Positions 1 through 27,750 are shown, counted from the first letter of the stretch. The stretch: 32,000 nucleotides of DNA from Acaryochloris thomasi RCC1774 (GCF_003231495.1 NZ_PQWO01000012.1:1-32000), one strand, 5' to 3'. Notes: generated by a model not told the origin, from the sequence alone. Numbers and translations are program-made.

Positions 1-654
1 TGTCATTTGCATCACCAATGAGGTTGTCGTTGCCATCCCCCGTGATAATGTGCTCAAAATTCTGAAACGATTGCCCCCCTGCCTGGCGATCTCCAACGCC
101 CCCTTGCTCCACAAAGATTGTGAGGTTGCGTCCATCGCTGGGTTCAAATCTGATGGTGTCTTGCCCTGCACCGCCGTCAAATGAGTCTAGACCACTGAAG
201 TTATTGACGATGACCGTATCATCACCAGAACCGCCTGTGAGTGTGTCATCACCCGCACCACCTGTGAGCGTGTCGTCACCTGCACCGCCAGTGAGTGTAT
301 CGTTCCCGGCACCCGCGCTCAGGCTATTGTCATTTGCATCACCAATGAGGTTGTCGTTGCCATCCCCCGTGATAATGTGCTCAAAATTCTGAAACGATTG
401 CCCCCCTGCCTGGCGATCTCCAACGCCCCCTTGCTCCACAAAGATTGTGAGGTTACGTCCATCACTGGGTTCAAATCTGATGGTGTCTTGCCCTGCACCA
501 CCGTCAAATGAGTCTATACTGCTGAAGTTATTAACAATGACCGTATCATCACCCTCACCACCCGCTAGCGTGTCATCACCCGCACCGCCGGTTAGGGTGT
601 CGTTTCCAGCTTCCCCAAGCAGAGAGTCATTTCCTGCTAAGCCACTGATGGTGT
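1..654. repeat. Intragenic tandem duplication with a 327 bp (109 codon) period inside the RTX gene
   Basis: Positions 1-127 are identical to 328-454. The first mismatches are 128 vs 455 (g/a) and 137 vs 464 (g/a). Identity stays high to about nt 190 of each unit, then falls to protein-level GGxGxD similarity. Confidence 0.85.
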
Positions 655-763
655 CTTGGCCGGCTTGGCCGCAAATCACATCTGCACCAGGTGTACCTAG
701 AAGGTCGTCATCACCTTCGGTTCCATTCAGTAAAATTTGATCTGTCGTAGTGGGTGAAGTCAT
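1..763 (-). CDS. RTX-type calcium-binding repeat protein. Only the N-terminal 254 codons are in the window; the ORF runs off the left edge, so it is missing from the supplied ORF track.
   Basis: The reverse-strand frame starts at ATG 761-763 and reads MTSPTTTDQILLNGTEGDDDLLGTPGADVICGQAGQDTISGLAGNDSLLGEAGNDTLTGGAGDDTLAGGEGDDTVIVNNFSSIDSFDGGAGQDTIRFEPSDGRNL... It carries many GGxGxDxUx nonapeptides and has no stop down to position 1. The + strand ORFs 120..392 and 447..740 (SPAPP low complexity) are its antisense shadow. Confidence 0.8.
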   Translation of the reverse strand, partial: MTSPTTTDQILLNGTEGDDDLLGTPGADVICGQAGQDTISGLAGNDSLLGEAGNDTLTGGAGDDTLAGGEGDDTVIVNNFSSIDSFDGGAGQDTIRFEPSDGRNLTIFVEQGGVGDRQAGGQSFQNFEHIITGDGNDNLIGDANDNSLSAGAGNDTLTGGAGDDTLTGGAGDDTLTGGSGDDTVIVNNFSGLDSFDGGAGQDTIRFEPSDGRNLTIFVEQGGVGDRQAGGQSFQNFEHIITGDGNDNLIGDAND

Positions 764-4739: not shown

Positions 4740-5666
4740 CTACGAGCCAACTGCTTCAGCCGTAGCCCCCTGATCATCAATCTGGAGAACGGCAGTCTCG
4801 GCGCTCAGTTCTGATGCCCATGCCGATTTCATTGCAGTTGCGATCGCATCTCCCCTCACAACTGGCCCCAGTGCTAACAACGTTGGCCCCGCCCCGCTAA
4901 TGACCATTCCATAGGCCCCCGCCTCAGCTGCCGCATGAGCCACCGCCCCATAGCCTGGAATCAAACCCTGCCGATAGGGCTGATGAAGCCGATCCTGCAG
5001 CGCCGCCCGCAGCCAGTCTGCATGACCTGCCCCTAAGCCCCTAATCAACAGCCCCAGATGAGCGGCGTTGAAAATAGCGGTACTGTATTCACAGGACTTG
5101 GGCAGCACCTGGCGAGCAGAGCAGGTCGGCAGCTCAAAATCAGGAATGGCTACAATCGGGACAACCTCGGGGGACCAAGGCACATCACACAGCGTCCACT
5201 GCTCTGTTTGCTGATCTTTCGCCGCCAGTTGGCAGTTGCCTAGCAGAGCAGGTGCAACATTATCAGGGTGACCTTCTAGGGCGATGGCCTGCGGTAAAAG
5301 CTGTTGCCTCGTCAGGGGCGAACCCGCTAGCGCATTGGCTCCCATTAACCCTGCCACAATGGCCGTTGCCGAACTTCCGAGTCCACGGGCAAGCGGCACC
5401 CCAAGCCGGATCTTGATCTGTACAGGCGGGACCGGTCGGTCTCGGAAATAAGCCACAAAGGCTTTATAAACCAGGTTGCTTGCATCCGTTGCCACCTGTT
5501 GAGCCTCAGCTCCCTGCACCTGAATCTGCAGCGGGCCAACCGCCGGATCAAGAGCTGTAAATTGAAAGCGATTGTAGCGCGTCAGCGCAGCCCCCAAACA
5601 GTCAAAACCAGGACCAATGTTCGCACTGGTGGCAGGCACCTTGACATCAAAGGTTGGATTAGACAT
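4740..5666 (-). CDS. thrB: Homoserine kinase (GHMP kinase family)
   Basis: 308 aa with an ATG start. The N-terminus [21 protein letters not shown] and the GHMP motif [16 protein letters not shown] are classic ThrB signatures. Confidence 0.9.
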
Positions 5667-5933
5667 CTGGTTCTTAATCGCTCAGGCAACGACGGCTCAT
5701 CCGTTCCGCTTTGAGCTTGATCTCAAAGGAGTGGTCGAGGCTGCTTTTTATTAGACCATTAATGTCCCCTTGATTGTGAACCCGCAGCAGCGATTCTCGC
5801 GTGCGCGAGGCTGTCGCGAACAATATTGAACGATCTGCGTCATGGACTGGGCATCACATCCCGTAACTTTCATAGGCCAGTCGCTATGATAATTGGGTAA
5901 AAAACTGTAGGGTATCGATGTCATAGCCGTCTC

Positions 5934-7274
5934 TTGACAGCAATAAGGACTCTTGATGTAGTGTTTCAACGTTTTTCGCCACCCGCTAATCAGCCCAAGT
6001 ATCGCTTTCGCTGTCTATTCTGTGGCGCAGAATATGCCCCCGATCCGTTTCGACTGCACTGCGATCAAGAACATGAACCCTCCCTGCTGCGGGCCGTTTA
6101 TGCCAGCCAGCAGCTCACCGTCAGACCACAGCTTCCTGGACTCTTTCAATTCATTGATTGGTTACCGGTTGAGCAGTACCTATCGAATGTTGGCAAGCCG
6201 ATCACCTACCAAAGTCAAGGTTTAGCTCAGCACCTTGGACTAGAACAGCTTTGGATTAGCTTCAGCGGCTACTGGCCCGAGCGCAATGCTCGCCTATTGA
6301 CCTGCTCGTTCAAAGAACTAGAAGCCGTCACTGTCTTGGCCCGAATTCCCCAAGAGAATCAGCAGGTGCTGGCGATCTCTTCTGCAGGCAATACCGGCAG
6401 GGCCTTTGCTCAGATCTATTCTCGCCACGGCATTCCCCTGTGCCTCGTGATTCCCGAAAAGAGTCTGCCCGCCATCTGGGCCTCTGAATCGTTCAATCCC
6501 TCTGTTCGGCTCGTGATCGTAAACAAGAGCGAAGATTATTTTGACGCGATCCAGCTCGGTCGCTTAATTAGCAAGCTTGACGGTTTTTTCCCTGAGGGCG
6601 GAGCCGCCAACATTGGTCGTCGTGACGGTATGGGACTGACGGTGATTGATGCCGCCGTCACCCTGGGTCGCATTCCTGACCACTATTTTCAGGCCGTCGG
6701 GTCGGGAACGGGCGGCATCGCAGCTTGGGAAGCGAATCTACGGCTGCTCCAGGATGGTCGATTTGGCGAGCAGGCGATGACGCTGCATCTAGCCCAAAAC
6801 GCGCCCTTTACACCGATGGTCGATGCCTGGAAGGCTGGTGAACGGGAGATTGAGGAAATGACAGCCTCCGTTGCCAAGATGCGCATTAATCAAGCCTCTG
6901 CGAAGGTGCTCACCAATCGCCAGCCAGCCTACTCAATTGCGGGGGGTGTTTATGACGCACTAACGGCATCGCAGGGGAGCATGTATGCTGTCACCAATGC
7001 AGAGGCGCAGCAGGCCAGGGCATTGTTTGCAGAGCTAGAGGGTATTGATATTTGTCCTGCTTCAGGGGTGGCCGCCGCCGCTCTATTGCAGGCGGTGCAG
7101 TCTGGTAAGGTGCATAAAGCAGAGACCCTGCTGCTAAATATTACCAGCGGCGGATTTGAACGTTTGCAAACAGAGTGCAAACTCCACTACTTAAAACCCT
7201 CACTGGGAATAGACGCCCAGGCGATTAGCCCTGAGTTCGTGGCCTCGCGGCAAAGCGATTTCTGCCCGGATTAA
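5934..7274 (+). CDS. Threonine-synthase-fold PLP-dependent enzyme, cysteate-synthase-like
   Basis: 446 aa ORF. It has an N-terminal Cys-rich ribbon (YRFRCLFCGAEY...HCDQEH), then WLPV, a putative PLP-lysine motif LTCSFKELEA (not the SFKDRG of canonical ThrC), SSAGNTGRAFA and a phosphate loop AVGSGTGG. The start is uncertain: TTG at 5934, or GTG at 5961 preceded by AAGGA at 5946-5950. No in-frame ATG lies nearby. Confidence 0.75.
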   Translation: MTAIRTLDVVFQRFSPPANQPKYRFRCLFCGAEYAPDPFRLHCDQEHEPSLLRAVYASQQLTVRPQLPGLFQFIDWLPVEQYLSNVGKPITYQSQGLAQHLGLEQLWISFSGYWPERNARLLTCSFKELEAVTVLARIPQENQQVLAISSAGNTGRAFAQIYSRHGIPLCLVIPEKSLPAIWASESFNPSVRLVIVNKSEDYFDAIQLGRLISKLDGFFPEGGAANIGRRDGMGLTVIDAAVTLGRIPDHYFQAVGSGTGGIAAWEANLRLLQDGRFGEQAMTLHLAQNAPFTPMVDAWKAGEREIEEMTASVAKMRINQASAKVLTNRQPAYSIAGGVYDALTASQGSMYAVTNAEAQQARALFAELEGIDICPASGVAAAALLQAVQSGKVHKAETLLLNITSGGFERLQTECKLHYLKPSLGIDAQAISPEFVASRQSDFCPD

Positions 7275-7326
7275 GTTAGAGTTTCGCTGGATGTGTTGGA
7301 GCTGGTAAGGATTTGAGAGGAGACCT

Positions 7327-9033
7327 ATGGCAAATTTTGCTCTGACGATGTTGGGTCTGGTCACCCAATGGTCAAAGAAGAACTTCACTCGTAAAACTCA
7401 AAATATTATTGAGGTGCAGACTGGTTTTTTGCGATCGCTACTCCAGGCTCATCAGAACACCGAATTTGGCCGAGAGTACGGCTTTTCCGAGATTCAGACC
7501 GTTGAACAATTCCGGCAGCAGGTCCCCGTTCAGCCCTACAGCGGCTTTGAACCCTATATTCAGCGGATGGCTGACGGTGAAACGAATGTGCTGACAGCAG
7601 AGCCGCTCATTTACTTCAACATTACCAGCGGTTCTACGGGGCGCAAGAAGCTGATTCCGGTGACGAAGCGATCGCGTCAGATACTCTCTAGAACCAATCG
7701 TGTCGCGGTCGGGATTGTTACAGCCGCCGCAAGACGAGAACAGACGCCCCTTGGCACGGCCCTATTTCCAGGCTCTGTCAATGCCTTAGGCAAAACTAAG
7801 GGAGGTATTCCCTATGCACCTGTGAGTACGAGCGATCTACGTCTAGGCGAGTTCTTGTATCGCCAGGTCGTTGCTTATCCTTCTGACGTGTTCAAAATCT
7901 CAGATATTGCCACTCGACATTATATCTGTCTGCTCTTTTCACTCCGCGATCCTGATATTCGGATTGTCTGTGCAACTTTCCCGGCCCTAGCACTGCTGAT
8001 GTGTGACTATTTAGAGCGGTATTCAGAGTCTCTGATTCGTGATCTAGAGACAGGCCAGCTTGCCGATCACTTGCGGCTTGACCCGGAGTTGCGGATCAAG
8101 CTGGAAAAAGAGTGGTCCGCCGCTCCTCAGCGCTCAGCTCAGCTTAGGCAGATCTTTAAGACCCACGGACGCCTGACGCCGCAGCATGTTTGGCCCCAGC
8201 TGTCCTTTTTGGTGACGGCGCGGGGGGGCACTTCTAATTTCTATTTTCAACGTTTTCCTGAATACTTCGGCGACATCAAAATTTATGGAGGTATCTACTC
8301 CTCTGCAGAAGCGACCTACGGCGTTCATCGAGACTTCGATACGGATGGCGTGATTTTGGCGATTGAAAGTGGCTTCTATGAATTTATCCCAGAGGACCAG
8401 TGGGACGTAGAGCAACCCCAAACGCTCCTGCCCTGGGAGGTTGAGGTGGGGCAGTGCTATCGAATTGTGTTCAGCAACTTTAGTGGATTCTATCGCTATG
8501 ACCTCGGGGACGTGGTCGAAGTCGAAGGGTTCTATGAGCAGACGCCGCTGCTGATTTTTCGCTATCGACGGGGGGGCGTTATGACCTCTGTGGGGGAAAA
8601 AATTACGGAATTTCACGCGCTACAGGTGATGCAAAAACTGCAGAGTGATTTCAACCTCCAGCTAGAGAACTTTTGCTTTACGTTGACCTATGACGCTCCG
8701 GCGCAGTATCTGATCAATATCGAACTGGCGTCTGGTGAGACGTTGACCGATCCGGTTGCGTTTCTCGGTGCGTTTGACGCTACGCTCAAGGAGCTGCACA
8801 CGATGTATGCCCTCAAGCGACGCGATCAGGTGCGGCCGCCCCACCTGCGAATTTTGGCTGCCGGAAGTTTTGAGCAGGTCCGGCAGCGGATGGTTCAGAA
8901 TGGTGCCGCTGAAAGCCAACTCAAAATGCCCCACGTTACTGAAGATCGGGAGTTCCTGGCTGGGGTTACCGTCGCCCAAGAAGTTGACGGCAGTAGAATC
9001 CAGCCCGTTCAAGCTGCTGATAGCAGACGATGA
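7327..9033 (+). CDS. GH3-family acyl-acid amido synthetase (ANL adenylating superfamily)
   Basis: 568 aa with an ATG preceded by GAGAGGAG. All three GH3/ANL motifs are readable: FNITSGSTGRKKLIPVT, YSSAEATYG and YRYDLGDVVEV. It sits 52 nt downstream of the PLP enzyme on the same strand. Confidence 0.85.
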   Translation: MANFALTMLGLVTQWSKKNFTRKTQNIIEVQTGFLRSLLQAHQNTEFGREYGFSEIQTVEQFRQQVPVQPYSGFEPYIQRMADGETNVLTAEPLIYFNITSGSTGRKKLIPVTKRSRQILSRTNRVAVGIVTAAARREQTPLGTALFPGSVNALGKTKGGIPYAPVSTSDLRLGEFLYRQVVAYPSDVFKISDIATRHYICLLFSLRDPDIRIVCATFPALALLMCDYLERYSESLIRDLETGQLADHLRLDPELRIKLEKEWSAAPQRSAQLRQIFKTHGRLTPQHVWPQLSFLVTARGGTSNFYFQRFPEYFGDIKIYGGIYSSAEATYGVHRDFDTDGVILAIESGFYEFIPEDQWDVEQPQTLLPWEVEVGQCYRIVFSNFSGFYRYDLGDVVEVEGFYEQTPLLIFRYRRGGVMTSVGEKITEFHALQVMQKLQSDFNLQLENFCFTLTYDAPAQYLINIELASGETLTDPVAFLGAFDATLKELHTMYALKRRDQVRPPHLRILAAGSFEQVRQRMVQNGAAESQLKMPHVTEDREFLAGVTVAQEVDGSRIQPVQAADSRR

Positions 9034-9054: not shown

Positions 9055-9136
9055 TGCGGATGAAAGGACTTGAACCTTCACACCTCTCGGTACTAGAACC
9101 TAAATCTAGCGCGTCTACCAATTCCGCCACATCCGC
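9055..9136 (-). tRNA. trnL-UAG: tRNA-Leu (anticodon UAG), class II with a long variable arm; CCA is not encoded
   Basis: The reverse complement is GCGGATGTGGCGGAATTGGTAGACGCGCTAGATTTAGGTTCTAGTACCGAGAGGTGTGAAGGTTCAAGTCCTTTCATCCGCA. It folds with acceptor GCGGATG/CATCCGC, anticodon stem CTAGA/TCTAG around loop TTTAGGT, variable arm ACC-GAGA-GGT, and T arm GAAGG-TTCAAGT-CCTTT. Confidence 0.92.
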
Positions 9137-11694: not shown

Positions 11695-12516
11695 TTAGCC
11701 AAAACGTCCAGAAACGTAGTCGCGGGTGTAGTCTTCTTTGGGATTGGTAAAGATATTAACGGTGTCGTCATACTCCACGAGGTAACCGCGCTTGCTACCT
11801 TGATCGGTGGCCTCAGCGTTAAAAAATGCTGTTTTGTCAGACACACGGGATGCTTGCTGCATATTGTGCGTCACAATCACAATTGTGTATTGCTCTTTCA
11901 GTTCTTGCATCAATTCCTCAACGCGAAGCGTAGAAATGGGGTCAAGCGCTGAGCAAGGTTCATCCATCAGGATGACTTCGGGTTGAACCGCGATCGCACG
12001 GGCAATACAAAGCCGCTGCTGCTGACCACCCGATAGAGACAAACCACTCTCATTGAGCTTGTCTTTAACTTCATCCCACAACGCAGCGCGGGTCAAAGAG
12101 GTCTCCACTAACTCATCCATATCCCCTTTGTAGCCATTAATTCTGGCTCCGAAGGCAATGTTGTTGTAGATAGATTTAGGGAAAGGATTTGGCTTTTGAA
12201 ACACCATCCCGATCCGACGACGAACCTCTACCGGATCGACCTGTTTGGCATAGAGATCAATTCCCTGGAACGTAATATTGCCCTTGACTTGAGCACCAGG
12301 TATCAAGTCATTGGTGCGATTGAAGCACCGCAACAGCGTACTTTTACCACAGCCAGAAGGACCAATAAACGCTGTGATTTGATATTGAAAAATATCGAGA
12401 AAAACATTACTCACAGCAACGGTCGAGCCGTATAGGATCGAAACATCCTCGGCACGGAGTAGAGGTTGAGTTGCCTTGAGATTAGGGGAACCAGTTTGAG
12501 AGGGTGAAGCAGTCAT
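11695..12516 (-). CDS. pstB: Phosphate ABC transporter ATP-binding protein
   Basis: 273 aa. It has Walker [10 protein letters not shown], the PstB-typical [13 protein letters not shown], signature LSGGQQQRL and Walker B ILMDEP. It is the last gene of a pstS-C-A-B array. Confidence 0.93.
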
Positions 12517-12562
12517 AGTTCAGAGGTAGCAAGACACGTCATGGGAAAGGGATAACAGTGAC

Positions 12563-13465
12563 CTAAAACACTTTTCTTCGAGTCAAATAGCGAGACATGA
12601 TGCTGATGAACAGAATCAGTAGAATAATAACCAGTGAAGCAACCCAGGCCAGCTCCTGCTGATTCTGATACGGAGAAATTGCAAAGTTATAGATCAGTAC
12701 AGACAGCGTTGCAACAGGTTCCCAAGGGCCATTGAAGCCAAACTGGCTAAACAAAGCCGTGAACAAGAGTGGGGCGGTTTCTCCAGCGGCCCTTGCCAGC
12801 GATAACGTTATCCCTGTTGCAATAAATGGCATCACGGCGGGTATAACAACTCGGCTGATAGTCTGAAAATCATTGGCTCCCACACCAATAGAAGCAAGAC
12901 GAATCTCTCGGGGGATAGATTTAAGACCTTCTTCAACGGTACGGATCACAATCGGCACCATCAGCACCGACAGCGCGACTCCTCCAGCAACCGCAGAAAA
13001 GTTACCCGTCGTCAGTACAACAATGCCGTAGGCAAACAGACCCGCAATAATGGATGGCACGCCGCTCAAAACATTCGTGCAAAACCGAACGATCCCTGCT
13101 GCCTTCGTGCCTCGGCCAAACTCCACGGTATAAATTGCTGTCAGGATACCGATCGGTACGCTTAAGAGAGAACCAATCAGCAGTGTAATGAGGGTGCCAA
13201 AGAACGCATTCCTCATCCCTCCGCCCTTCACCAGCGGTGGCGGTGGCAGCTCCGTGAAAATATCAACATCGAGCCGACCGCCTCCCTTGATGAAGACATT
13301 CAGCAGAATGGCCACCAGAGGAATCAATGCAATGAGGGTGCAGCCAACAACTAAGGCCGTCATTATGCTCCCAAAAAATCGACGACGAGCATCGGCAGGC
13401 GCATATAACTCGGCAGTCGCTCCCTGCCCAAGAGTGGAATTAGATTGTTGCGGAGAGTCGGCCAT
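12563..13465 (-). CDS. pstA: Phosphate ABC transporter permease
   Basis: 300 aa polytopic membrane protein with an EAA-like loop (LARAAGETAPLLF). It lies between pstC and pstB. Confidence 0.88.
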   Translation of the reverse strand: MADSPQQSNSTLGQGATAELYAPADARRRFFGSIMTALVVGCTLIALIPLVAILLNVFIKGGGRLDVDIFTELPPPPLVKGGGMRNAFFGTLITLLIGSLLSVPIGILTAIYTVEFGRGTKAAGIVRFCTNVLSGVPSIIAGLFAYGIVVLTTGNFSAVAGGVALSVLMVPIVIRTVEEGLKSIPREIRLASIGVGANDFQTISRVVIPAVMPFIATGITLSLARAAGETAPLLFTALFSQFGFNGPWEPVATLSVLIYNFAISPYQNQQELAWVASLVIILLILFISIMSRYLTRRKVF

Positions 13466-13505
13466 AATTGATTCGCAGTAATGTTGCTCGCCCGTAATGA
13501 AGGAA

Positions 13506-14471
13506 CTATTCGACCTGTTGGAAGCGGTTAATAACCACTTCTGCCAACATATTGACGCTCAGCGTTATCAGCATCAAAATCAGAGCAGAATACATGAGAG
13601 AGGCCACCTGCAGTCCTGTTGCCTCTGCGAACTGATTTGCAATCAGAGACGCAATGGTTGCCGCAGGAGCCAAAATAGAACTTTTGATTTGGTTGGCGTT
13701 GCCAATGAGCATGGCCGCCGCCATCGTCTCGCCTAGCGCCCGTCCTAAGGCAAGCATCACTGATCCAATAATGCCGGAGAGTCCGGCAGGAAGCAAAACC
13801 TTGAGGATGGTTTCCCAGCGAGTTGCGCCTAGAGCTAATGAGCCTGCTCGCAACTGTGGCGGTAGAGAAGTAAGAGTATCCCGAGATAAAGAGATAATAA
13901 TCGGTGAAATCATCACCGCTAAAACCATTGCCGTGGGCAGCATGGCCCGCGTTTGTGGTGGCGTGTTGAACAGCGGTATCCAGCCCAGAGTGTCGTGAAA
14001 CCAACCGAGCACCGGCAGGATGGCCGGGACTAGCACAAAAATGCCCCACAAGCCGTAAACAACGCTTGGAATGGCGGCCAACAGCTCGATCATGAAGGCG
14101 ATGGGAGTACGAACCTTAGTCGGCAGGAAGTCTTCACTGAGAAAAATCGCAACCCCAACCCCCAGCGGAACCGCCATCAGAAGGGCCAAAATCGCACTCA
14201 CCACTGTTCCATATATTTGAGGCAGCATCCCGTAGATACTTTCGACGGGATTCCATCGGGTTGTGATCAAGAACCCTAAACCAAATTCTTGGACGGCAGG
14301 TAATGCTGTTGTAAATAATTCAACTGTGATCCACAGCAGAATCAGGGCGATACTGGCTGCGCTGATAGCCGTCATGCCATAGAAGACCCGATTGACAAAC
14401 CAAGAGAAATCTCGATTTTGAGCGAGTTGCGGCTGAGATTGAGCTACAGATTTGTCTGCTAGCGAGTCCAT
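13506..14471 (-). CDS. pstC: Phosphate ABC transporter permease
   Basis: 321 aa polytopic membrane protein with an EAA-like loop (LALGRALGETMAAAML). It lies directly downstream of pstS. Confidence 0.88.
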   Translation of the reverse strand: MDSLADKSVAQSQPQLAQNRDFSWFVNRVFYGMTAISAASIALILLWITVELFTTALPAVQEFGLGFLITTRWNPVESIYGMLPQIYGTVVSAILALLMAVPLGVGVAIFLSEDFLPTKVRTPIAFMIELLAAIPSVVYGLWGIFVLVPAILPVLGWFHDTLGWIPLFNTPPQTRAMLPTAMVLAVMISPIIISLSRDTLTSLPPQLRAGSLALGATRWETILKVLLPAGLSGIIGSVMLALGRALGETMAAAMLIGNANQIKSSILAPAATIASLIANQFAEATGLQVASLMYSALILMLITLSVNMLAEVVINRFQQVE

Positions 14472-14515
14472 AATGATCGTCTATGTAATAACGGCTATAT
14501 CAGTTAGCAGCTATC

Positions 14516-15613
14516 TTAGCCTTCGCCGAGATAGCTGATTCTTTCCTTAACACGCTCGATCAGGTCAGCCTCTAAAGGAATGTAGCCCAACTCTTCTGCG
14601 AACTTTTGTCCGTCGGTGAGAGACCAATCCATTACCGCCTTGAGGGCTTTGGCTTTGTTGGCATCTTCATACTTTGGATACAGCAGTAGCCAAGTCAGTC
14701 CTGCGATCGGATAGGCATCAGGATTTTCTGGGTCAGGAACCACGAGTGCAAAGTCGTCGGGTACGGTCTCGCCTTGGAATACCAGGGCGGCTGACTCTGG
14801 CGTTGGTGCAATAATGTTTCCGGACTTATTCTCAATGGCAGCCGCTGGAAGGCCGTTTTCTTTGGCGTACGCATATTCAACGTAGCCGATCGCACCTTCG
14901 GTTTGCTGAATCTGAGCCGTAATTCCTTCGTTGCCTTTGGCACCCGTGCCCACGGGCCACTCGACTGACTTACCACTGCCGGCAGGCCAGTCTGAGCAGG
15001 CTGCTTCTATGTGGGTGGTGAACAAAAAGGTTGTACCACTACCGTCGGAACGATGAACCCAACTGATGGGTTGACTGGGCAGAGTGGCGTCAGGATTGGC
15101 TTTCGTGATAGCAGGGTCGTCCCAAGTCTTGATTTTGCCTGTGACGATGCCGCAGTAGTCTTCTCGAGAGAGTTTCAGCTCTTCAACACCCGGTAGGTTG
15201 AAGGCGAACACAACACTTCCTGAGGTCATCGGAACCTGAACCGGCCCCTCTGGATACTGTTCAGTAAACTTCGCGCGCTCTTCATCTTTGATAGGCGCAT
15301 CACTAGCTCCAAAATCTACGGTGCCAGATAAGTATTGCTCAACACCCGCACCACTACCAACAGATTGATAGCTGACTTGAACACCAGAATTTTCTTTATT
15401 GTACTCAGAAAACCAACGCTGATAGAGCGGGGCTGGGAAGGAAGCTCCGGCGCCACTTAAGCTAGCGCTCAAATCGCTGCCAGCACTGTCGCCGCCTGCG
15501 TCAGATGTTGAGGGGGCCTCGCTTACATCACCACCACAGGCAGTCGCACCTAGCGCTACCAGTAACCCGAGAGCCCAGGATAGGCGTCCCGTTGATCGAA
15601 CTTGAAGGCTCAT
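14516..15613 (-). CDS. pstS: Phosphate-binding lipoprotein of the Pst system
   Basis: The ATG at 15613 gives MSLQVRSTGRLSWALGLLVALGATACGG, a lipoprotein signal. The track start at 15637 is GTG. It carries the PstS motif GAGASFPAPLYQRWF. Confidence 0.9.
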   Translation of the reverse strand: MSLQVRSTGRLSWALGLLVALGATACGGDVSEAPSTSDAGGDSAGSDLSASLSGAGASFPAPLYQRWFSEYNKENSGVQVSYQSVGSGAGVEQYLSGTVDFGASDAPIKDEERAKFTEQYPEGPVQVPMTSGSVVFAFNLPGVEELKLSREDYCGIVTGKIKTWDDPAITKANPDATLPSQPISWVHRSDGSGTTFLFTTHIEAACSDWPAGSGKSVEWPVGTGAKGNEGITAQIQQTEGAIGYVEYAYAKENGLPAAAIENKSGNIIAPTPESAALVFQGETVPDDFALVVPDPENPDAYPIAGLTWLLLYPKYEDANKAKALKAVMDWSLTDGQKFAEELGYIPLEADLIERVKERISYLGEG

Positions 15614-15665
15614 AGATTTTCCGAAGCTATACACCACATTGATGGCTTGATATTAAAGCTTTTGC

Positions 15666-15707
15666 GGGAACATCATGGTAAAGACCGGGTTAACGTTTCC
15701 ATAACCC
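15666..15707 (-). promoter_or_regulatory. Candidate Pho box (SphR/PhoB site) upstream of pstS, with a probable -10 at 15650-15655
   Basis: The minus strand reads GGTTATGG-AAA-CGTTAACC-CGG-TCTTTACC-ATG-ATGTTCCC. That is four 8 bp units at an 11 bp period, resembling the cyanobacterial PyTTAAPyPy(T/A) Pho-box repeat. A TAATAT hexamer lies 10 nt downstream. Confidence 0.5.
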
Positions 15708-15871
15708 TTGGTTTTTGATGAACCCAGCTCCCAGGGCGGATTTGCGAAAATCTCTCAAAAAAGGATTATATTCTGGCTCAGGGGCAGATTGATGACGATC
15801 AATGTTTGCAACCTTCACAGAACGATAATTTCTACGGTTCTGTTGTTTGCAACCGATGTATTTTGGCTACA

Positions 15872-16183
15872 ATGGGAAAAGAAAATTCTCTTGAGGCAAG
15901 TGGTTATATCGTGTCCAAATCCGATTCACCACGACGAGACGACAGGGACCGGCTTCTCTATCCCCAAAGTCGCTATCAGGGAAAGTTTACACCCGAGAAT
16001 CTAGCGTTTAACTCAAATCTGCAGGAATTTGCCCAGAAAGTTAGCTATATTTGTGCGCTAGAAACGGGCGGCAAAATTTCTCCAGACCAAGCCTATCGAG
16101 ATGTAAAAGCCCTTTGGAAAGAGCTAAAGGTTAGTAAAAAAGAGCTGAAAATTCGTGAGGATTCTGCTGAAGAAGAGAGTTAA
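15872..16183 (+). CDS. Small conserved hypothetical protein (103 aa)
   Basis: The ATG at 15872 gives MGKENSLEASGY...YQGKFTPENLAFNSNLQEFAQKVSYICALETGGKISPDQAYRDVKALWKELK. The track start at 15806 is TTG. From memory the FTPENL..N.NLQEFA...LE..GKISP..AY core resembles small proteins conserved in cyanobacteria. I could not search to confirm this. Confidence 0.6.
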   Translation: MGKENSLEASGYIVSKSDSPRRDDRDRLLYPQSRYQGKFTPENLAFNSNLQEFAQKVSYICALETGGKISPDQAYRDVKALWKELKVSKKELKIREDSAEEES

Positions 16184-16265
16184 AGATTTTGCAGGGTATC
16201 ACTGACTAAGCTATCTCTTTCGAAAAGATCGGGGCATGAATCGGCTGAAACGAATTTGAAGATTC

Positions 16266-17291
16266 ATGAAAACAGAAGCTCTACAAGTGAGAAAGACAAG
16301 CGGTAAGGGGCGGGTTACACAACCCATCCCAACATTTGGTGATTGTGCTCATCAGGCGATTCAGAAACATTTCAAAAAATCTGTCAAGTACAAAGCGGAT
16401 GTGTTGCGTGATCTTGATCCTGAACCCCTACACCAAATGCGGGTGGGGATGCGGCGATTGCGGACGGCGTTACAGGTTTTTGCGCCTGCGATCACCGAAG
16501 GTGGGTCAGAGGCCATCGCGGCTCCCATAGAAAACCGCAAGATCTCCAAAATCGCCAAAGAGTTAGGGCGTGTGCGAGATTTAGATGTGCTCTACATCTG
16601 GTTTCAGCAGTACCTACAGCAAACCTCGTTGACACCTGCCGAGGCGCTGGAGCTGCAGCTATTACTCCAGCGCTTGCAGATACGACGTGGGGCGCAGTTC
16701 GCCCAGATGCAGCGGCTGCTGAAGAGTAAGCAGTATCGTGCCTTTGTGAGCATGCTTAAGGGCTGGCTGCAGCACCCGCAGTACACAGCCATTGCCCAGT
16801 TGCCGATCCAGACTGTTTTGCCAGATCTGCTGCTGCCATTGATTTCTGAGCTGCTCCTCCATCCTGCCTGGATGGTGGCGGTTACTGTGCAGCAGGGAAC
16901 GGTCGTTCCTCAAGAGATCTCAGATCTATCTACCCTCAACCAAAATTTTTACCGTTGGGAGCCGTTGCTGCACGATCTGCGAAAGCAGATGAAAGGGGTG
17001 CGGTACCAAACTGAGTTTTTTATGGATTTTTATGGTCAGGACTTCAGGCAGCAAACACGTGAATTTCGGCTGATTCAGGATCAGTTGGGCCACCTACAGG
17101 ATCAGATGGTTCTCGATCAGTTCTTGACCCAGGATTTAGGGATAGACTGGGCGCAGAAGATCCCGTCTTTGGCGCAGTATTTTCAGCAGGAACGCTGGCA
17201 GCTTTGGCAGCAGTGGCAGGCCCATCAGCGGCAGTATCTAGATTCGGGGTTTCGGAAGGAGTTGCGATGGTCTCTGACCCACCTTCGGTGA
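16266..17291 (+). CDS. CHAD domain-containing protein
   Basis: 341 aa, all-helical and basic. CHAD-type His/Arg motifs appear twice: LHQMRVGMRRLRTALQVF and LHDLRKQMKGVRYQTEFF. Confidence 0.8.
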   Translation: MKTEALQVRKTSGKGRVTQPIPTFGDCAHQAIQKHFKKSVKYKADVLRDLDPEPLHQMRVGMRRLRTALQVFAPAITEGGSEAIAAPIENRKISKIAKELGRVRDLDVLYIWFQQYLQQTSLTPAEALELQLLLQRLQIRRGAQFAQMQRLLKSKQYRAFVSMLKGWLQHPQYTAIAQLPIQTVLPDLLLPLISELLLHPAWMVAVTVQQGTVVPQEISDLSTLNQNFYRWEPLLHDLRKQMKGVRYQTEFFMDFYGQDFRQQTREFRLIQDQLGHLQDQMVLDQFLTQDLGIDWAQKIPSLAQYFQQERWQLWQQWQAHQRQYLDSGFRKELRWSLTHLR

Positions 17292-20227: not shown

Positions 20228-21892
20228 ATGAAGCGAGTCCTGCCCCCTTTTCCCACTTTCCTGCTGTGGACAATGAGTTTCGGAATAGCCTCCTTTGGCA
20301 TCACGTCTGCTCAGGCGGCTGAGCGTATCTATGCTTCCTATGGTTCTTTCGAGCGATCGGTTTCGGTCAAAGCGCTGGAAGTCTACGCCAAAGAGGGCAG
20401 GGTCACGGGCGATCTCGGGATCTATCTCCGCTATCTTAAGCCTGAACGCCGACGCCAGTTCCGGGCCGCTCTGCAGCAGCGAGCGACGCTAACCCCCGTC
20501 TCGATTGCCCAGTTTCTATATGCTCCCGTTGGTGAACAGCTCCTAAAGCGGGCTGAGAAAGTGGTACAGCCCAAGTCTGGCGTCGGTGGATTCTTTGCCC
20601 TACGTGCTGCGTTAATTTTGGCGGCGGCGGATCCCGAAGGGCTAACGTTTCTCAATCTGCTCAAGGCCTACCCCACTGAAGGGATTCAAGTTGACCTGGC
20701 CGAAGGCTTAAGCACGTTTTCCCAAGGGCGCAAGCTGATCCAAAAGACAGATCAGGCCGTGGCCTCAATTGAAGCCACCGCTGAGGTTACACCACCCCCA
20801 GCGCTGACGGCTGCAGGCCGCAGTCTCGCCACAGCCGGTGCGTTTACCTCGAAAAAAGTCTCCCTTAATCTAGAAGACAGTACACCACTGCGGCTCGATT
20901 ATGCGGGCAAGTCTCGCCCGTTTCCCGTTGATGTGTATCTGCCCCAAGGTACCCCTGGTCCCCGCCCCGTAATTGTGATTTCCCACGGGCTAAATTCCGA
21001 TCGTCAGTCCTATGCTTATTTAGCTGAACATCTAGCGTCTCATGGGTTTGCAGTGGCGGTCCCGGAACATACCGGCAGCAATACGGACCAGCTTTTAGAT
21101 TTGCTGGCGGGCCGCGCCAGCGAGGTGCCCAGTGCCACTGAATTTGTCGATCGTCCGCTAGATGTTAAGTTCTTGCTCGATGATTTGCAGATGAGATCGC
21201 AAACTGACCCCACTTTCAAAGACAGGCTCAACCTCAAGCAGGTGGGTGTTATTGGCCAATCGTTCGGGGGCTACACCGCCCTAGCGCTGGCGGGAGCACC
21301 GCTCAACTTTAATCGACTGCAGCAGGACTGCCGCCAGAATCTTGCAGACACACTCAACCTGTCGCTGGTGCTCCAGTGTCAGGCGCTGCGACTCGCGGGC
21401 CGAGACTATCAGCTTGCTGACCCACGCATTAGGGCGGCGATCACCATTAACCCTGTCGGCAGCAGTTTGTTCGGCCCCGCGAGCATGGGAAAAATTCAAG
21501 TTCCGATCATGGTGGTAACGGGGAATGCCGACACCATTGCCCCTGCATTACCGGAGCAAATCCGGCCTTTCTCTTGGCTGACTAGCCCCCAGAAATATTT
21601 GGCCTTGATTAGGAAAAGCACGCATTTTTCCACCATCGACGAGCCAGAGGAAGCAGCAGCAGAACCGATTCCTACGTCCCCTCAAATTATTGGACCGTCC
21701 CCAGAACTGGCCCGCACCTATATTGGGGCGCTGAGTACAGCGTTTATGCAAACCCATGCCGCCCAGCAGCCGCGCTATCAAACGTATCTCTCATCTGACT
21801 ACGCCGCCGCGCTGAGCCAGTCTTCGCTGCCCCTCAGCTTAATCGAGGCGCTGCCTGAACCCGGGGAGGGTGAGCTGGAAGATCAGACGTAG
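20228..21892 (+). CDS. Secreted DUF1400-domain / alpha-beta hydrolase fusion protein
   Basis: 554 aa. A signal peptide (...GITSAQA|AE) is followed by a DUF1400-like N-domain (AERIYASYGSFERSVSVKALEVYAKEGRV...). The hydrolase core has VIVISHGLNSDRQSYAYLAEHLASHGFAVAVPEH and the nucleophile elbow GQSFGG. Confidence 0.8.
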   Translation: MKRVLPPFPTFLLWTMSFGIASFGITSAQAAERIYASYGSFERSVSVKALEVYAKEGRVTGDLGIYLRYLKPERRRQFRAALQQRATLTPVSIAQFLYAPVGEQLLKRAEKVVQPKSGVGGFFALRAALILAAADPEGLTFLNLLKAYPTEGIQVDLAEGLSTFSQGRKLIQKTDQAVASIEATAEVTPPPALTAAGRSLATAGAFTSKKVSLNLEDSTPLRLDYAGKSRPFPVDVYLPQGTPGPRPVIVISHGLNSDRQSYAYLAEHLASHGFAVAVPEHTGSNTDQLLDLLAGRASEVPSATEFVDRPLDVKFLLDDLQMRSQTDPTFKDRLNLKQVGVIGQSFGGYTALALAGAPLNFNRLQQDCRQNLADTLNLSLVLQCQALRLAGRDYQLADPRIRAAITINPVGSSLFGPASMGKIQVPIMVVTGNADTIAPALPEQIRPFSWLTSPQKYLALIRKSTHFSTIDEPEEAAAEPIPTSPQIIGPSPELARTYIGALSTAFMQTHAAQQPRYQTYLSSDYAAALSQSSLPLSLIEALPEPGEGELEDQT

Positions 21893-21973
21893 TGCGCTGA
21901 CGCTTCTCACCAGAGCATTTCAGGGTTTTACTGAGTATGCCCAAGGGTGCCCAGGAAGCATCGTCCAGAGGTT

Positions 21974-22615
21974 TTACTGGGGTGTGGGCTGCGAGCGACT
22001 CGGTGCCGAAGCGCCTGGGTTGCAGTCGCAAACAAACGTTTCAATCAGATCAGTTGCGATCGCAAGTGGCACCTTCAGGTCTTCTTCTGCACTGCTAATG
22101 AACCGATTGACTCGCCCCGCCGTTTGCGCCAACTGAAAGCCATCCACAACCAGATCGTTGGTGGGATAGCGCTGCAGAAACTCAAGAAACGAAATTTCAC
22201 CATCGTCGCTCAAAGACAGCAGAATCGAAGATCGCAACGCCTGAATATTGCTCCGCCGCGTTGGCGTATGGAGAACTTCACCCGTTTGGAACAAGATGTA
22301 CTCGCCCGGAATCTTGTGCAAGAGGTTGTCGGCCAGCGTCAGGCTAACCTTGGCCTCCTGCGTCATAAACTTACGGGCTTGCTCAGGATCCTGACCTGAC
22401 GCCCGTAACAAGAACTTCAGATTAGGAGAAGTCTTACCGGTTTCAACAAACGTCTCTAGCTCATTGAGCGTCAGCGTCCGGCCAAAAGAGCCAAAGGTCA
22501 GCACCACTTTCTCTGCCGCAGCAGCAGGACGAGGCATCGTAACGGCTGAGATGGCCAACGCTGCCGCTGCTGAAAGTCCCCACAAACGCACGATATTCGA
22601 GCGCAGAAATGACAT
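21974..22615 (-). CDS. Secreted stand-alone DUF1400-domain protein (paralog A)
   Basis: The ATG at 22615 gives a signal peptide MSFLRSNIVRLWGLSAAAALAISAVTMPRPAAA|AE. The track start at 22630 is TTG. AEKVVLTFGSFGRTLTLNELETFVETGK... aligns by eye with the hydrolase N-domain. The C-terminus carries FVCDCNP. Confidence 0.7.
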   Translation of the reverse strand: MSFLRSNIVRLWGLSAAAALAISAVTMPRPAAAAEKVVLTFGSFGRTLTLNELETFVETGKTSPNLKFLLRASGQDPEQARKFMTQEAKVSLTLADNLLHKIPGEYILFQTGEVLHTPTRRSNIQALRSSILLSLSDDGEISFLEFLQRYPTNDLVVDGFQLAQTAGRVNRFISSAEEDLKVPLAIATDLIETFVCDCNPGASAPSRSQPTPQ

Positions 22616-22667
22616 GATTAAACTCCGCAATATAGGATTTTGTCACCAAAGCTGGCCGATTCAGGCA

Positions 22668-23459
22668 CTACTGATCGACCGGCTGAGGGTCTAGAGACTT
22701 GAGCAAAGACTGAAACGTCTCCTCCGTCAGAGCGGTCTCATCTGTCAGAACGGTCTCATCCGGGAGCGGAACCGCTTTAGTCAGAGTTGTCGCCTTATTG
22801 CAGTTCGCATGGGTGGTCGCGTCACGGTAAGAATGCGCTCCATCTTTGACCGGCTGAACGGTAGACGTGTTAGACGCCTCTTGAGCAGGATCGCAGTCAC
22901 AAACGATATCTTGCAGAACGCCTTTCGCTACTTCTAAGGCCGGTAGAACCTTCTCAACAAAACCACTGACATCGTTGTAGGTGCTCTCTAGGTTGGTGAG
23001 ATCGACTCGAATCGTATCCATAGGGTGCCGATCGATGATCTCAAGAAAGGAGACTTGGCGATCGTCGATTGAATCTAAGACCGCTGACTTCAGCGCCTCT
23101 AGATCTGCCTCTGTCCGACCGGAGGAACTGCTAATGGCCTTGTCGAGCTGCAGGAACAAAAACTCACCATTCTTGCTCTGCAAAAAGTTCTCCACGAATG
23201 TCGGAATCTGAATGTCGCGGGTCAAGATATTGCGGAACGTGGTGGGTAAAGCCTCGTCAGTATTCAACAGATCTTGCAAAGCCGTCGGAATCGTTCCAGT
23301 TTCAGAGAAAGTATTAATCTCTGACTGGCTGACGGTGACCTCTTCACCTTTGTAACTGACGCGAATGTTCTCAGCCGCTTGTGTCTTGTTTGCCAGCAGC
23401 GGAATGCTAACAGCGCTGGCCAGACCGACGATTAACCAGGAAAAGAATTTAGGCTTCAT
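22668..23459 (-). CDS. Secreted stand-alone DUF1400-domain protein (paralog B) with an acidic Thr/Glu-rich tail
   Basis: The ATG at 23459 gives a signal peptide MKPKFFSWLIVGLASAVSIPLLANKTQA|AE. The longer track ORF starts at GTG 23747, and its extra 96 aa do not look protein-like. AENIRVSYKGEEVTVSQSEINTFSETGT... is DUF1400-like and is followed by IVCDCDP. Confidence 0.7.
   Translation of the reverse strand: MKPKFFSWLIVGLASAVSIPLLANKTQAAENIRVSYKGEEVTVSQSEINTFSETGTIPTALQDLLNTDEALPTTFRNILTRDIQIPTFVENFLQSKNGEFLFLQLDKAISSSSGRTEADLEALKSAVLDSIDDRQVSFLEIIDRHPMDTIRVDLTNLESTYNDVSGFVEKVLPALEVAKGVLQDIVCDCDPAQEASNTSTVQPVKDGAHSYRDATTHANCNKATTLTKAVPLPDETVLTDETALTEETFQSLLKSLDPQPVDQ
22726..22761. repeat. 18 bp tandem repeat, two copies, within the paralog B tail
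   Basis: gtcagagcggtctcatct (22726-22743) is followed by gtcagaacggtctcatcc (22744-22761), with 2 mismatches. On the minus strand it encodes DETVLT-DETALT. Confidence 0.85.
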
Positions 23460-23734
23460 GAGACTTTTTCCTACAGTGAAACATTGAATTGACCGTTGAG
23501 TTTGAGGCGAAGAAAACTTCAGCGATACCTCAGCTTCAGTAACAAACCCGTAATCTCTACTCAAGCATTTTGGGGTCTCTCTGTCATCTACTTCAGGGCT
23601 GAAATTGAGGCGGTGGACCCAAGCCCGTCGCGAGGGATCCCTTTCGCTGTCGAGCGTCACGATGGGGAGCAGAGCGTCAATACGAATTATGTCTATCGGC
23701 GGGCGATTTCTGTTCATAGCGTTAGAACAGAAAT

Positions 23735-24268
23735 ATGGGTACCTCACATCGCATCTATTGGCTATTGGGAATCACGGCTGTCTTCAGCGGTGTCGCTTTG
23801 TTCGTGACCCAAATGGGGTTAATCAAACCCGGCATTGCTAGTCCCGAGGGGCTTCGCGCTCCAGGGGGCATTGCAGCTGCCATCGAAGACCGCTCCTTAG
23901 CTTTGCATTCTGAGGGCATTAAAAAAGCACTTCTGGGCGACTATCCCAGCGCCATCTCTGACTATGATCGGGCCTTGATGTTGTCTCCCAAAAACCCTGA
24001 GATTTACTACAATCGTGCCGTTGCGCATTACTCAGCGGGCCACTCTGAGCAAGCAGTACAGGATTTTGACCGTGCCATTCAACTCCAGCCGACGATGGCC
24101 GAAGCCTATGCCAATCGCAGCACGCTGCACCTAGAGATCGGCGACCCGGCTAGAGCGCTGGCAGATGGGCAAAGGGCGGCAGATCTGTTTGAGCAGCAAG
24201 GTGAGCCTGGTCTAGCCACAGAGATTCGAGACTGGCTACGGCAGCATAAAATTAGGGCCATCCATTAG
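23735..24268 (+). CDS. TPR-repeat protein with an N-terminal membrane anchor or signal sequence
   Basis: 177 aa with an ATG start. The hydrophobic N-terminus (YWLLGITAVFSGVALFV) is followed by three TPR units (AISDYDRALMLSPKNPEIYYNRAVAHY..., AVQDFDRAIQLQPTMAEAYANRS...). Confidence 0.8.
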   Translation: MGTSHRIYWLLGITAVFSGVALFVTQMGLIKPGIASPEGLRAPGGIAAAIEDRSLALHSEGIKKALLGDYPSAISDYDRALMLSPKNPEIYYNRAVAHYSAGHSEQAVQDFDRAIQLQPTMAEAYANRSTLHLEIGDPARALADGQRAADLFEQQGEPGLATEIRDWLRQHKIRAIH

Positions 24269-24549: not shown

Positions 24550-25488
24550 CTAGCTTGCGGCCTGCAGATTTGGTTCCACTATCGGTGAGTCAGTATTGCC
24601 ACCCAAGGCCAGAACGCCTTCGACATTGTTAACAATGGTGGTGCAGATGTCGTCCAGCGGTAGGTCATTAGCGTTGCACCCAAATGGATTCTCTAGCTCA
24701 CGCCCCACTTCTTCTACGCCCAGCAGCAAGAAGCTGACAATAGCCATAATGGGGACCGACCACCAGGTTAATTCAGGAACGGTTCTGAAGGGCAGACCAA
24801 TGCAGTAAATCAAAATCAAACGCTTCAGAAAAACACGATAGGCAATGGGAATAGGAGTGGTAATAATCCGTTCGCAGCTGCTTACGCCTTCAATAAGGCT
24901 GTTGAGCATGGCGTTGGCATTGGCCACTAGCGTCTCGGTTACTTGACCTGCCTCTAGCTGCTGCTGGAGATAGCTGCGAATCCAAAACGCAATGTCGAGG
25001 GGACAATGCTTTGAGGTCTTGAGCTGTTCTGCTTGCGCGGGGGTGATTAATGCTTTGAGTTCATCGCTGGGGGCTTCGCCACGCAGATGGAGTTTGGTTG
25101 CGATCGCAAAGGCAGACAGCAGCCGAATCGCGTCCCGTTTCTCAGCCGGATCGGCATCCACGCCAATCTGTAGTTCACGGGCTAGGTTGCGAATGTTAAC
25201 AACCAACGCCCCCCAAGCCTTGCGACCTTCCCAAAAGCGGTCGTAGGAGGTGTTGGTGCGAAAGACAATCAGGAGGCCAAGGACGAGGTTGAAGATCACA
25301 TTCGTGGTCAGGCCGCCCAGCTTTTCTAGGTAAATTGGATACTCTAAGGCATTGATGAGGGCAATAAAACCCGCAAAGCCACAGAAAGCAAGAATTCGCG
25401 GCAAAACCATCAGCACGACTGAGCCCTGAAGCTGAAAGGTCGTGGCAAACCAGTTGGGTTTCTCTAACTTATCGGCGGCGATCGCCAT
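24550..25488 (-). CDS. Bestrophin-family (UPF0187/YneE-like) ion channel
   Basis: 312 aa with the family motif VFRTNTSYDRFWEGRKAWG after two N-terminal TM helices. Its ATG overlaps the upstream MscS stop (TAATG). Confidence 0.8.
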   Translation of the reverse strand: MAIAADKLEKPNWFATTFQLQGSVVLMVLPRILAFCGFAGFIALINALEYPIYLEKLGGLTTNVIFNLVLGLLIVFRTNTSYDRFWEGRKAWGALVVNIRNLARELQIGVDADPAEKRDAIRLLSAFAIATKLHLRGEAPSDELKALITPAQAEQLKTSKHCPLDIAFWIRSYLQQQLEAGQVTETLVANANAMLNSLIEGVSSCERIITTPIPIAYRVFLKRLILIYCIGLPFRTVPELTWWSVPIMAIVSFLLLGVEEVGRELENPFGCNANDLPLDDICTTIVNNVEGVLALGGNTDSPIVEPNLQAAS

Positions 25489-26387: not shown

Positions 26388-26410
26388 GGGGTTTTAAAAA
26401 GAGGACAGAC

Positions 26411-26764: not shown

Positions 26765-26791
26765 GGCTTATCGCTGTCCTATACGCTGTGC

Positions 26792-27727: not shown

Positions 27728-27750
27728 TGTGAGGTTGAGTAATATATCAG

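Follow-up and report, generated by a model that had tools for sequence, protein, structure and literature searches.

Enzymes of the GH3 family activate a carboxylic acid by adenylation and then couple it to an amino acid at the alpha-amine. An earlier note on the DNA studied here had called the bacterial members essentially uncharacterised, a view outdated since 2025, when OlsH of Singulisphaera acidiphila was characterised and found to join C14-C18 fatty acids to ornithine (PMC12493201). Cysteate synthase (CS), a pyridoxal phosphate (PLP) enzyme, has been characterised experimentally in Methanosarcina and Bacteroidota lineages (PMC11844431, PMC11211663), and the known fates of the cysteate made by it are coenzyme M in Methanosarcinales (PMC11844431) and capnine sulfonolipids in Bacteroidota (PMC11211663). 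Here we analyzed a 32-kb stretch of the genome of Acaryochloris thomasi RCC1774 (the window; all coordinates count from its first letter), in which a gene very probably encoding a CS is followed on the same strand by a gene for a GH3 protein. The two genes form a conserved, self-contained module in cyanobacteria. From the sequences we propose a two-step pathway in which CS and GH3 would act in succession to yield an acyl-cysteate, most likely a sulfonate lipid, a proposal that we regard as evenly balanced.

Like the predicted pair, the OlsH/OlsI system (PMC12493201) uses a bacterial GH3 enzyme that, with ATP and Mg2+, places a free fatty acid on the alpha-amine of a non-proteinogenic amino acid. 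A further link is that homologues of OlsC and OlsE, hydroxylases modifying ornithine lipid, lie beside cyanobacterial GH3 genes. However, the window GH3 protein is not an orthologue of OlsH, and Cyanobacteria are absent from the orders reported to have OlsH homologues. The operon partner also differs: OlsH is paired with the O-acyltransferase OlsI, whereas the window GH3 is paired with a CS that would supply the amino acid, and the predicted headgroup is anionic cysteate instead of cationic ornithine. No alpha/beta-hydrolase of the OlsI type was found as an operon partner; only CS is conserved beside GH3, and the nearest alpha/beta-hydrolases in the window, which are DUF1400 proteins, are at least 11 kb away.

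The capnine/sulfobacin pathway of Bacteroidota (CapA/Cys, CapB/CFAT, CapC/KCR; PMC11211663) starts with an orthologous CS acting on L-phosphoserine and likewise leads from cysteate to the headgroup of a sulfonate lipid. In that pathway an AONS-type PLP enzyme condenses cysteate with acyl-CoA or acyl-ACP, forming a C-C bond with loss of CO2 and giving a sphingoid-like base, whereas the cyanobacterial GH3 would form an amide in an ATP-dependent reaction and the carboxylate would stay. No open reading frame (ORF) of the CapB type (Aminotran_1_2) was present among the genes scanned in the window. The nearest known product chemistry is that of the sulfur-containing aminolipid (SAL) of marine roseobacters, which has an N-acylated C3 aminosulfonate headgroup (PMC8319176, PMC11631085). 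This headgroup, cysteinolic acid, is a reduced relative of cysteate that lacks the carboxylate, and it is made in a different phylum. Of the enzymes of SAL synthesis, only the O-acyltransferase SalA has been identified, and the one responsible for N-acylation still awaits identification (PMC8319176, PMC11631085); a SalA-like gene was not seen beside CS-GH3.

The plant GH3 proteins JAR1/AtGH3.11, GH3.5/3.6, and PBS3/GH3.12 are the closest solved structures. They share all three nucleotide-binding motifs and the two-step adenylation/amidation mechanism with the predicted enzyme, and the motif 3 core YRY-LGD is that of JAR1, but they act on hormones and proteinogenic amino acids, have no linked amino acid synthase, and differ in their pocket residues. 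Finally, the coenzyme M route of Methanosarcinales (MA3297-ComDE-MMP16; PMC11844431) also has an orthologous CS clustered with cysteate-consuming enzymes. There, cysteate is transaminated and decarboxylated to sulfoacetaldehyde; homologues of comDE and MMP16 are not present at the CS-GH3 locus, and the host is an oxygenic phototroph.

The PLP enzyme of the window, which carries PF00291, scored 521.6 bits with TIGR03844, the equivalog model of cysteate synthase (EC 2.5.1.76; cutoff, 324.9 bits), and the match extended over residues 23-424 and profile positions 1-396 of 398. In contrast, the threonine synthase (ThrC) models all stayed far below their cutoffs, with 33.8 bits for TIGR00260 (cutoff, 167.1 bits), 83.6 bits for the best of them, NF006050 (cutoff, 303 bits), and still lower values for the remaining ones. 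The solved cysteate synthase 9k3c/9k3o was matched over 401 aa at 51% identity with 440 bits, whereas ThrC structures reached about 40 bits (best, 42 bits). 9k3c belongs to the Bacteroidota type and shares 65-69% identity with the proteins of the Alistipes and Marinilabilia loci. The window enzyme is 48-51% identical to the proteins of these two groups and about 50% identical to those of the Methanosarcina CS loci (48-52% over all three groups).

The PLP lysine, K127 in the numbering of a 446-aa product (codon at about 6312-6314), lies in the motif SFKELEA, which aligns with SFKDRG of the ThrC structures and CSFKETEA of 9k3c. The motifs SAGNTGRAF and GSGTGG align with SAGNTARAF and GSGTGA of 9k3c. 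SFKELEA, SAGNTGRAF, and GSGTGG were invariant among 113 homologues; the cysteines C27, C30, and C43 were near-invariant and, together with WLPV and SFKELEA, kept in 106 to 113 of them. A canonical thrC gene was found neither in the window nor in the compared loci. The model scores and the motifs support the view that the enzyme is very probably a cysteate synthase and not a threonine synthase. They agree with the suggestion of the earlier note that it makes a non-canonical, possibly sulfonated amino acid, and no curated model identifies it as a ThrC, the alternative raised there. On record, the protein is named "Threonine synthase" in GenBank (PZD72035.1) and "cysteate synthase" in RefSeq. The GenBank label of 5961-7274 is a legacy misannotation with a risk of being passed on to other records.

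The GH3 protein matches C1752_03947 of A. thomasi RCC1774 with 100% identity. Its three domains were recognized by PF03321 (273.5 bits), PF23571 (86.4 bits), and PF23572 (72.8 bits), each with a cutoff of 23.6 bits, corresponding to E values of 3e-81, 1e-24, and 5e-20 for the N, M, and C domains. It could be aligned over its full length to ten plant GH3 structures including JAR1 (E value, 1e-35). All three nucleotide-binding motifs, as defined in PMC12493201, are present (Table 1), and S101 is the equivalent of S115, the motif 1 serine that is essential in OlsH. The window protein is probably an ATP-dependent amido synthetase that adenylates an acid and forms an amide with an amino acid. With the OlsH model NF052613 it reached only 94.8 bits in two partial stretches (cutoff, 620 bits), which shows that it is not an OlsH orthologue. 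The residues corresponding to the jasmonate pocket of JAR1, F113, L117, L124, F125, and W336, are replaced by V, S, T, N, and T. A basic segment following motif 1, IPVTKRSR, is a family-wide feature that is equally kept in GH3 clades without CS.

The distribution of the gene pair was analyzed by a scan of one genome per species with the window CS as query, of which the best 80 loci were kept. The scan gave 12 distinct CS-GH3 loci, which together with two direct look-ups (L086 and L089) and the window make 15. In all 15, CS precedes GH3 on the same strand, always in that order, and the flanks are unrelated. The carriers belong to Thermosynechococcaceae, Elainellaceae, Oculatellaceae, Leptolyngbyaceae, Coleofasciculaceae, Chroococcidiopsis, and Phormidium, so that the adjacency is conserved across cyanobacterial families. 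All-against-all clustering of the ORFs of 13 loci left CS and GH3 as the only genes common to all, as expected for the two-gene cassette envisaged in the earlier note. As the pair recurs in 15 distinct loci with differing flanks, the pairing is well beyond chance. In the other loci, the two genes either overlap slightly or are separated by up to about 250 nt. No GH3 gene was found near CS in about 57 non-cyanobacterial CS loci from Spirochaetota, WOR-3, Aminicenantes, Bacteroidota, and Methanosarcinales, even when profile hidden Markov models were included.

The pairwise distances of CS and GH3 proteins co-vary (r = 0.76, a value reached in none of 2,000 permutations). Such a correlation is compatible with joint inheritance of the two genes, but common vertical descent would by itself produce it as well. 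Within the CS tree, the deep grade of the cyanobacterial CS clade is made up of the GH3-linked genes. A derived clade nested within the cyanobacterial one (Moorena, Symploca, Nostocaceae) has lost GH3 and shows instead the arrangement CS-TauD-methyltransferase-PLP decarboxylase. This derived cassette, with one or more S-adenosylmethionine-dependent methyltransferases, was observed in L001, L007, L009, L011, L013, L015, and L020 (Moorena, Symploca), in L001 with an OpuAC binding protein nearby; its gene content suggests that cysteate is routed to taurine, N-methylated taurine-type compounds, or a natural-product precursor.

The reverse direction, that is, whether GH3 genes occur with or without CS, was addressed by shared-contig matching of GH3 and CS and by direct inspection of eight loci. 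In a neighbour-joining (NJ) tree with bootstrap of 120 cyanobacterial GH3 homologues, all 42 GH3 proteins encoded on the same contig as a CS fell into two clades, A1, which includes the window protein (99.5% bootstrap), and A2 (92.5%). The union of A1 and A2 was obtained in 41% of the NJ bootstraps, and the unlinked GH3 proteins were not monophyletic. Outside A1 and A2 there were 52 sequences, 24 of them on long contigs, and none of these 24 was accompanied by CS. Direct inspection confirmed the lack of CS for the unlinked GH3 genes of L083, L084, L085, L091, and L092. A metagenome scan with the GH3 query yielded two loci only. One metagenome-assembled genome (Oculatellaceae bins.114) carries both a linked (L017) and an unlinked (L092) GH3 gene. 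In Timaviella obliquedivisa (L085, 6001-9480), two GH3 genes stand in tandem, the second being more divergent (587 aa).

As cysteate is no general metabolite and a dedicated synthase is encoded directly upstream, the conserved and clade-specific linkage makes cysteate a likely substrate of the ligase. That the GH3 protein uses the amino acid made by the PLP enzyme, as the earlier note had supposed, is the most economical reading of this linkage. In the proposed pathway, CS would form an aminoacrylate from O-phospho-L-serine and add sulfite, giving L-cysteate and phosphate. The GH3 enzyme would then adenylate a carboxylic acid with ATP/Mg2+ and pass the acyl moiety on to cysteate at its free alpha-amine, with release of AMP, to give N-acyl-L-cysteate. 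CS should act before GH3, because PLP catalysis requires a free alpha-amine, which would be blocked by N-acylation. With a fatty or other membrane-lipid acid, the most likely acyl partner, this product would be a lipoamino acid that is anionic, carries a sulfonate but no phosphorus, and might be converted further to an aminolipid.

A lipid-type acyl group is suggested by analogy and by neighbour genes, and we would call this part of the proposal an even bet. It is favoured because OlsH, the sole characterised bacterial GH3 enzyme, joins fatty acids to ornithine, because GH3 paralogs and some CS-GH3 loci adjoin lipid-type genes, and because the cysteate that bacteria make with CS is known to end up in a lipid, capnine. 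In the case of unlinked GH3 genes, a gene for an OlsC-like Fe/2-oxoglutarate acyl 2-hydroxylase is adjacent in L083 (7772-8530), L084 (9379-10092), and L092 (8009-8722). The OlsC-like proteins had their best curated match in the OlsC model NF052565, over the full length and with 262-270 bits, about twice their LpxO score and below the cutoff of 450 bits. L083 has in addition CMAS and desaturase genes beside GH3, and in L091 the neighbours are fadE-, fadA-, and fadB-like genes of beta-oxidation. The pairing of OlsC-like and GH3 genes hints at a second, CS-independent, GH3-based pathway to aminolipid-like compounds in cyanobacteria.

In the case of CS-GH3 loci, a gene for an OlsE-like di-iron hydroxylase is located directly 5' of the pair in L002 and L086, OlsE being its sole curated match (112-114 bits). 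The assignments to the OlsC/LpxO and OlsE families were confirmed with an aminolipid review. In two Thermosynechococcaceae, a PAP2 phosphatase gene lies directly 5' of CS (L003, 3384-4115; L004, 2806-3507); the window has a homologue with 68% identity at 30917-31672 on the minus strand, 22 kb off. In L014 (6298-13066), the pair follows closely and co-directionally behind a squalene-hopene cyclase gene (shc) and an ABC transporter, and in L012 (4310-9686) behind a GT21 (hpnI-like) glycosyltransferase and a polyprenyl synthetase gene; a GT21 homologue is also found in L004. The L012 and L014 loci may be connected with the metabolism of hopanoids or membrane lipids. A hopanoid-derived acid as acyl partner, which this context might suggest, has a very slim chance of being correct. 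A gene of the TauE/SafE sulfite/sulfonate exporter family is located 0.8 kb upstream in L022.

Several observations weigh against an acyl-cysteate lipid and have to be set beside these data. Each of the lipid-type neighbours occurs in only two or three loci and none in the window itself, and no O-acyltransferase partner was identified beside CS-GH3. According to the aminolipid review, ornithine lipid has not been found in cyanobacteria and no cyanobacterial aminolipid has been reported; neither an acyl-cysteate compound nor the CS-GH3 pair was encountered in the literature searched. The linkage has a gap, as the clade A2 GH3 gene of L090 has no CS within 6 kb. At the protein level, the window GH3's nucleotide-binding motifs are nearer to those of plant GH3 proteins than to those of OlsH, and CS-linked and unlinked GH3 proteins are about equally distant from each other (57-59% identity). 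A comparison of linked with unlinked proteins revealed no signature that would point to recognition of a sulfonate: L/I393 is the one position that distinguishes the two sets under strict criteria, about 12 modest positions do so under looser ones, and none of these is a gained basic residue. The two CS-linked clades also differ from each other at positions 326, 329, and 330, which align with the acyl pocket of JAR1.

These points bear first on the nature of the acid. The same cassette might join cysteate to a small non-lipid acid, such as indole-3-acetate, phenylacetate, benzoate, a jasmonate-like oxylipin, or another metabolite, to form a soluble sulfonated conjugate for storage, inactivation, export, or signalling, comparable to the products of plant GH3 enzymes. 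The nearest structures are in fact JAR1 and indole-3-acetic acid-amido synthetases of plants (E values of 1e-35 to 1e-30), the three nucleotide-binding motifs are closer to the plant consensus than the divergent motifs of OlsH are, the OlsH model stays far below its cutoff, and most CS-GH3 loci have no lipid gene nearby. However, the jasmonate-pocket residues of JAR1 are replaced by small or polar ones, the recurrent neighbours of GH3 genes are of lipid type (OlsC-like, OlsE-like, beta-oxidation, PAP2, hopanoid), and none of them belongs to an aromatic-acid or hormone pathway. We consider a small acid unlikely.

The linkage marks cysteate as a substrate without saying which one, and the GH3 enzyme could instead activate the carboxyl group of cysteate and ligate it to an amino acid, polyamine, or peptide, giving an amide or dipeptide with a free amine. 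IPVTKRSR could in principle bind such an anionic acyl substrate, but this segment is equally conserved in the CS-less clades, and in all characterised GH3 enzymes, those of plants as well as OlsH, the adenylated acid lacks an alpha-amino group and the amino acid serves as nucleophile, which leaves this reading quite improbable. Another possibility is that ThrB supplies O-phosphohomoserine, from which the PLP enzyme would make homocysteate or an amino acid with some other gamma substituent for use by GH3. The window and L005 both have thrB next to CS in divergent orientation, and CS descends from threonine synthase, as stated in the title of Graham et al. 2009, but thrB adjoins CS in only 2 of the 15 loci, the window and its closest relative L005 (CS 86% identical), both of which belong to one shallow clade. 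Moreover, the CS equivalog model was passed and the invariant motifs are common to the phosphoserine-using enzymes, so that we hold this alternative to be highly improbable. The adjacency of thrB is coincidental and no specific role is assigned to it; the supply of the precursor by thrB, as proposed in the earlier note, does not agree with these counts or with the characterised CS enzymes, which use O-phospho-L-serine and not O-phosphohomoserine. Finally, apart from the first GenBank product name and the lack of a canonical thrC in the window and the compared loci, there is little to recommend a lack of any coupling, with an independent or housekeeping threonine synthase accidentally adjacent to GH3, and the poor ThrC scores, the replacement of SFKDRG, the renaming in RefSeq, and an adjacency kept across families with otherwise unrelated flanks make it extremely improbable.

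The features of the CS-GH3 region are summarized in Table 1.

Table 1. Features of the CS-GH3 region of A. thomasi RCC1774
Feature	Nucleotides	Residues	Strand	Remarks
thrB (homoserine kinase)	4740-5666	308 aa	-	Divergent neighbour, outside the module; TIGR00191
thrB/CS divergent intergenic region	5667-5960		unstranded	AAGGA ribosome-binding site at 5945-5949
CS (very probable cysteate synthase)	5961-7274	437 aa	+	From GTG; ORF open from TTG 5934 (446 aa)
CS-GH3 spacer	7275-7326		+	52 nt; GAGGAG Shine-Dalgarno at 7317-7322 before the GH3 ATG
GH3-family acyl-acid amido synthetase (probable)	7327-9033	568 aa	+	
GH3 motif 1, TSGSTGRKK	7624-7650	100-108	+	JAR1 S100SGTSQGRPK109; one-residue deletion
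GH3 motif 2, YSSAE	8296-8310	324-328	+	JAR1 Y330GSSE334; second Ser replaced by Ala, Glu kept
GH3 motif 3, YRYDLGD	8491-8511	389	+	G386FYRYDLGD395; JAR1 G397LYRYRLGD405
tRNA-Leu (anticodon TAG)	9055-9136		-	Rfam tRNA, 58.9 bits; ARAGORN; convergent with GH3

ORFs, motifs, strands, and the gaps of 52 and 267 nt were found where the earlier note had placed them, and the results of the profile searches proposed there (PF00291 and PF03321 matched, TIGR03844 above and TIGR00260 below its cutoff) were in line with its assignment. The 446-aa ORF exists, but its start has to be revised. Translation almost certainly begins at GTG 5961 rather than at TTG 5934, because the public record uses the former and because L005, the nearest relative, keeps the sequence AAGGA-N11-GTG but has CTG in place of TTG 5934. 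The 437-aa product is an exact match to PZD72035.1 and WP_110987350.1 of the same strain, and the distance to thrB becomes 294 nt instead of the 267 nt counted from TTG 5934. thrB itself encodes a bona fide homoserine kinase (TIGR00191, 283 bits; cutoff, 168 bits).

CS and GH3 are probably one transcription unit, since in the window the 52-nt gap is combined with a strong ribosome-binding site and the lack of a terminator; the terminator scan detected no terminator-like hairpin between 7275 and 7326. The tRNA-Leu gene is the 3' boundary of the unit. In the thrB/CS region, an alignment with L005 revealed a conserved block at about 5880-5930 that includes a -10-like GATAAT (5888-5893) and may contain a putative promoter. 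A full promoter was not found in this region by a consensus sigma-70 scan, and Rfam elements including riboswitches were absent upstream of CS.

A phosphate cluster at 11695-17291 consists of pstB, pstA, pstC, and pstS (11695-15637, minus strand) followed by genes for a DUF7219 protein and a CHAD-domain (polyphosphate-associated) protein. A Pho-box-like repeat with three mismatches is located at 15676-15694, just 5' of pstS. We rejected a link of pstSCAB to CS-GH3 as coincidental, because no Pho-box-like repeat is present in the thrB-CS spacer, the matches across the window are at chance level (16 versus 14 expected), and the synteny is restricted to L005. Two DUF1400 alpha/beta-hydrolases are encoded at 20228-23747, at a distance of 11-14 kb from GH3; L090 likewise has a DUF1400 gene, 4.6 kb from its CS-less clade A2 GH3 gene. 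On the minus strand at 24550-29532, a bestrophin-family channel gene and three consecutive paralogs of MscS-type mechanosensitive channels form what looks like an osmotic-stress channel cluster. The window begins inside a gene for an RTX-type calcium-binding repeat protein (1-742, minus strand) with GGAGNDTLxGGxGDD nonapeptides. This gene is built of 327-bp tandem modules that are 92% identical, and the plus-strand "proline-rich" ORFs (120-740) are antisense shadows of it.

Public records already contain annotations for each of the genes; the conserved CS-GH3 module and the acyl-cysteate predicted as its product seem not to have been described before. That cyanobacteria, namely, many filamentous and some unicellular ones, make a new N-acyl-L-cysteate or "cysteate lipid" class from a dedicated CS-GH3 operon is a tentative proposition, to which we give somewhat less than an even chance. 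The design would combine N-acyl amino acid synthesis of the GH3/OlsH type with a CapA-type supply of the headgroup. The model lends itself to direct testing, as both enzymes are soluble, the substrates are cheap, and sulfonates give a diagnostic signature in mass spectrometry. Our analysis also allows correction of annotations, namely, the legacy label "threonine synthase" and the uninformative label "auxin-responsive promoter". N-acyl amino-sulfonates are commercially relevant surfactant chemotypes. By extension, such a module would make GH3 enzymes candidates for the missing enzyme that N-acylates the SAL headgroup in roseobacters.

If the model is correct, the module would represent a third use of CS-derived cysteate, after archaeal coenzyme M and the capnine sulfonolipids of Bacteroidota, and would extend the bacterial GH3 chemistry opened up by OlsH to an anionic sulfonated headgroup. 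The enzyme would be the first GH3 ligase with its own supply of a non-proteinogenic amino acid. For cyanobacteria, the pathway would be the first one leading to an aminolipid and would provide a second type of sulfolipid beside sulfoquinovosyldiacylglycerol (SQDG), and thus an unrecognised class of metabolites or lipids in a globally important phylum of phototrophs.

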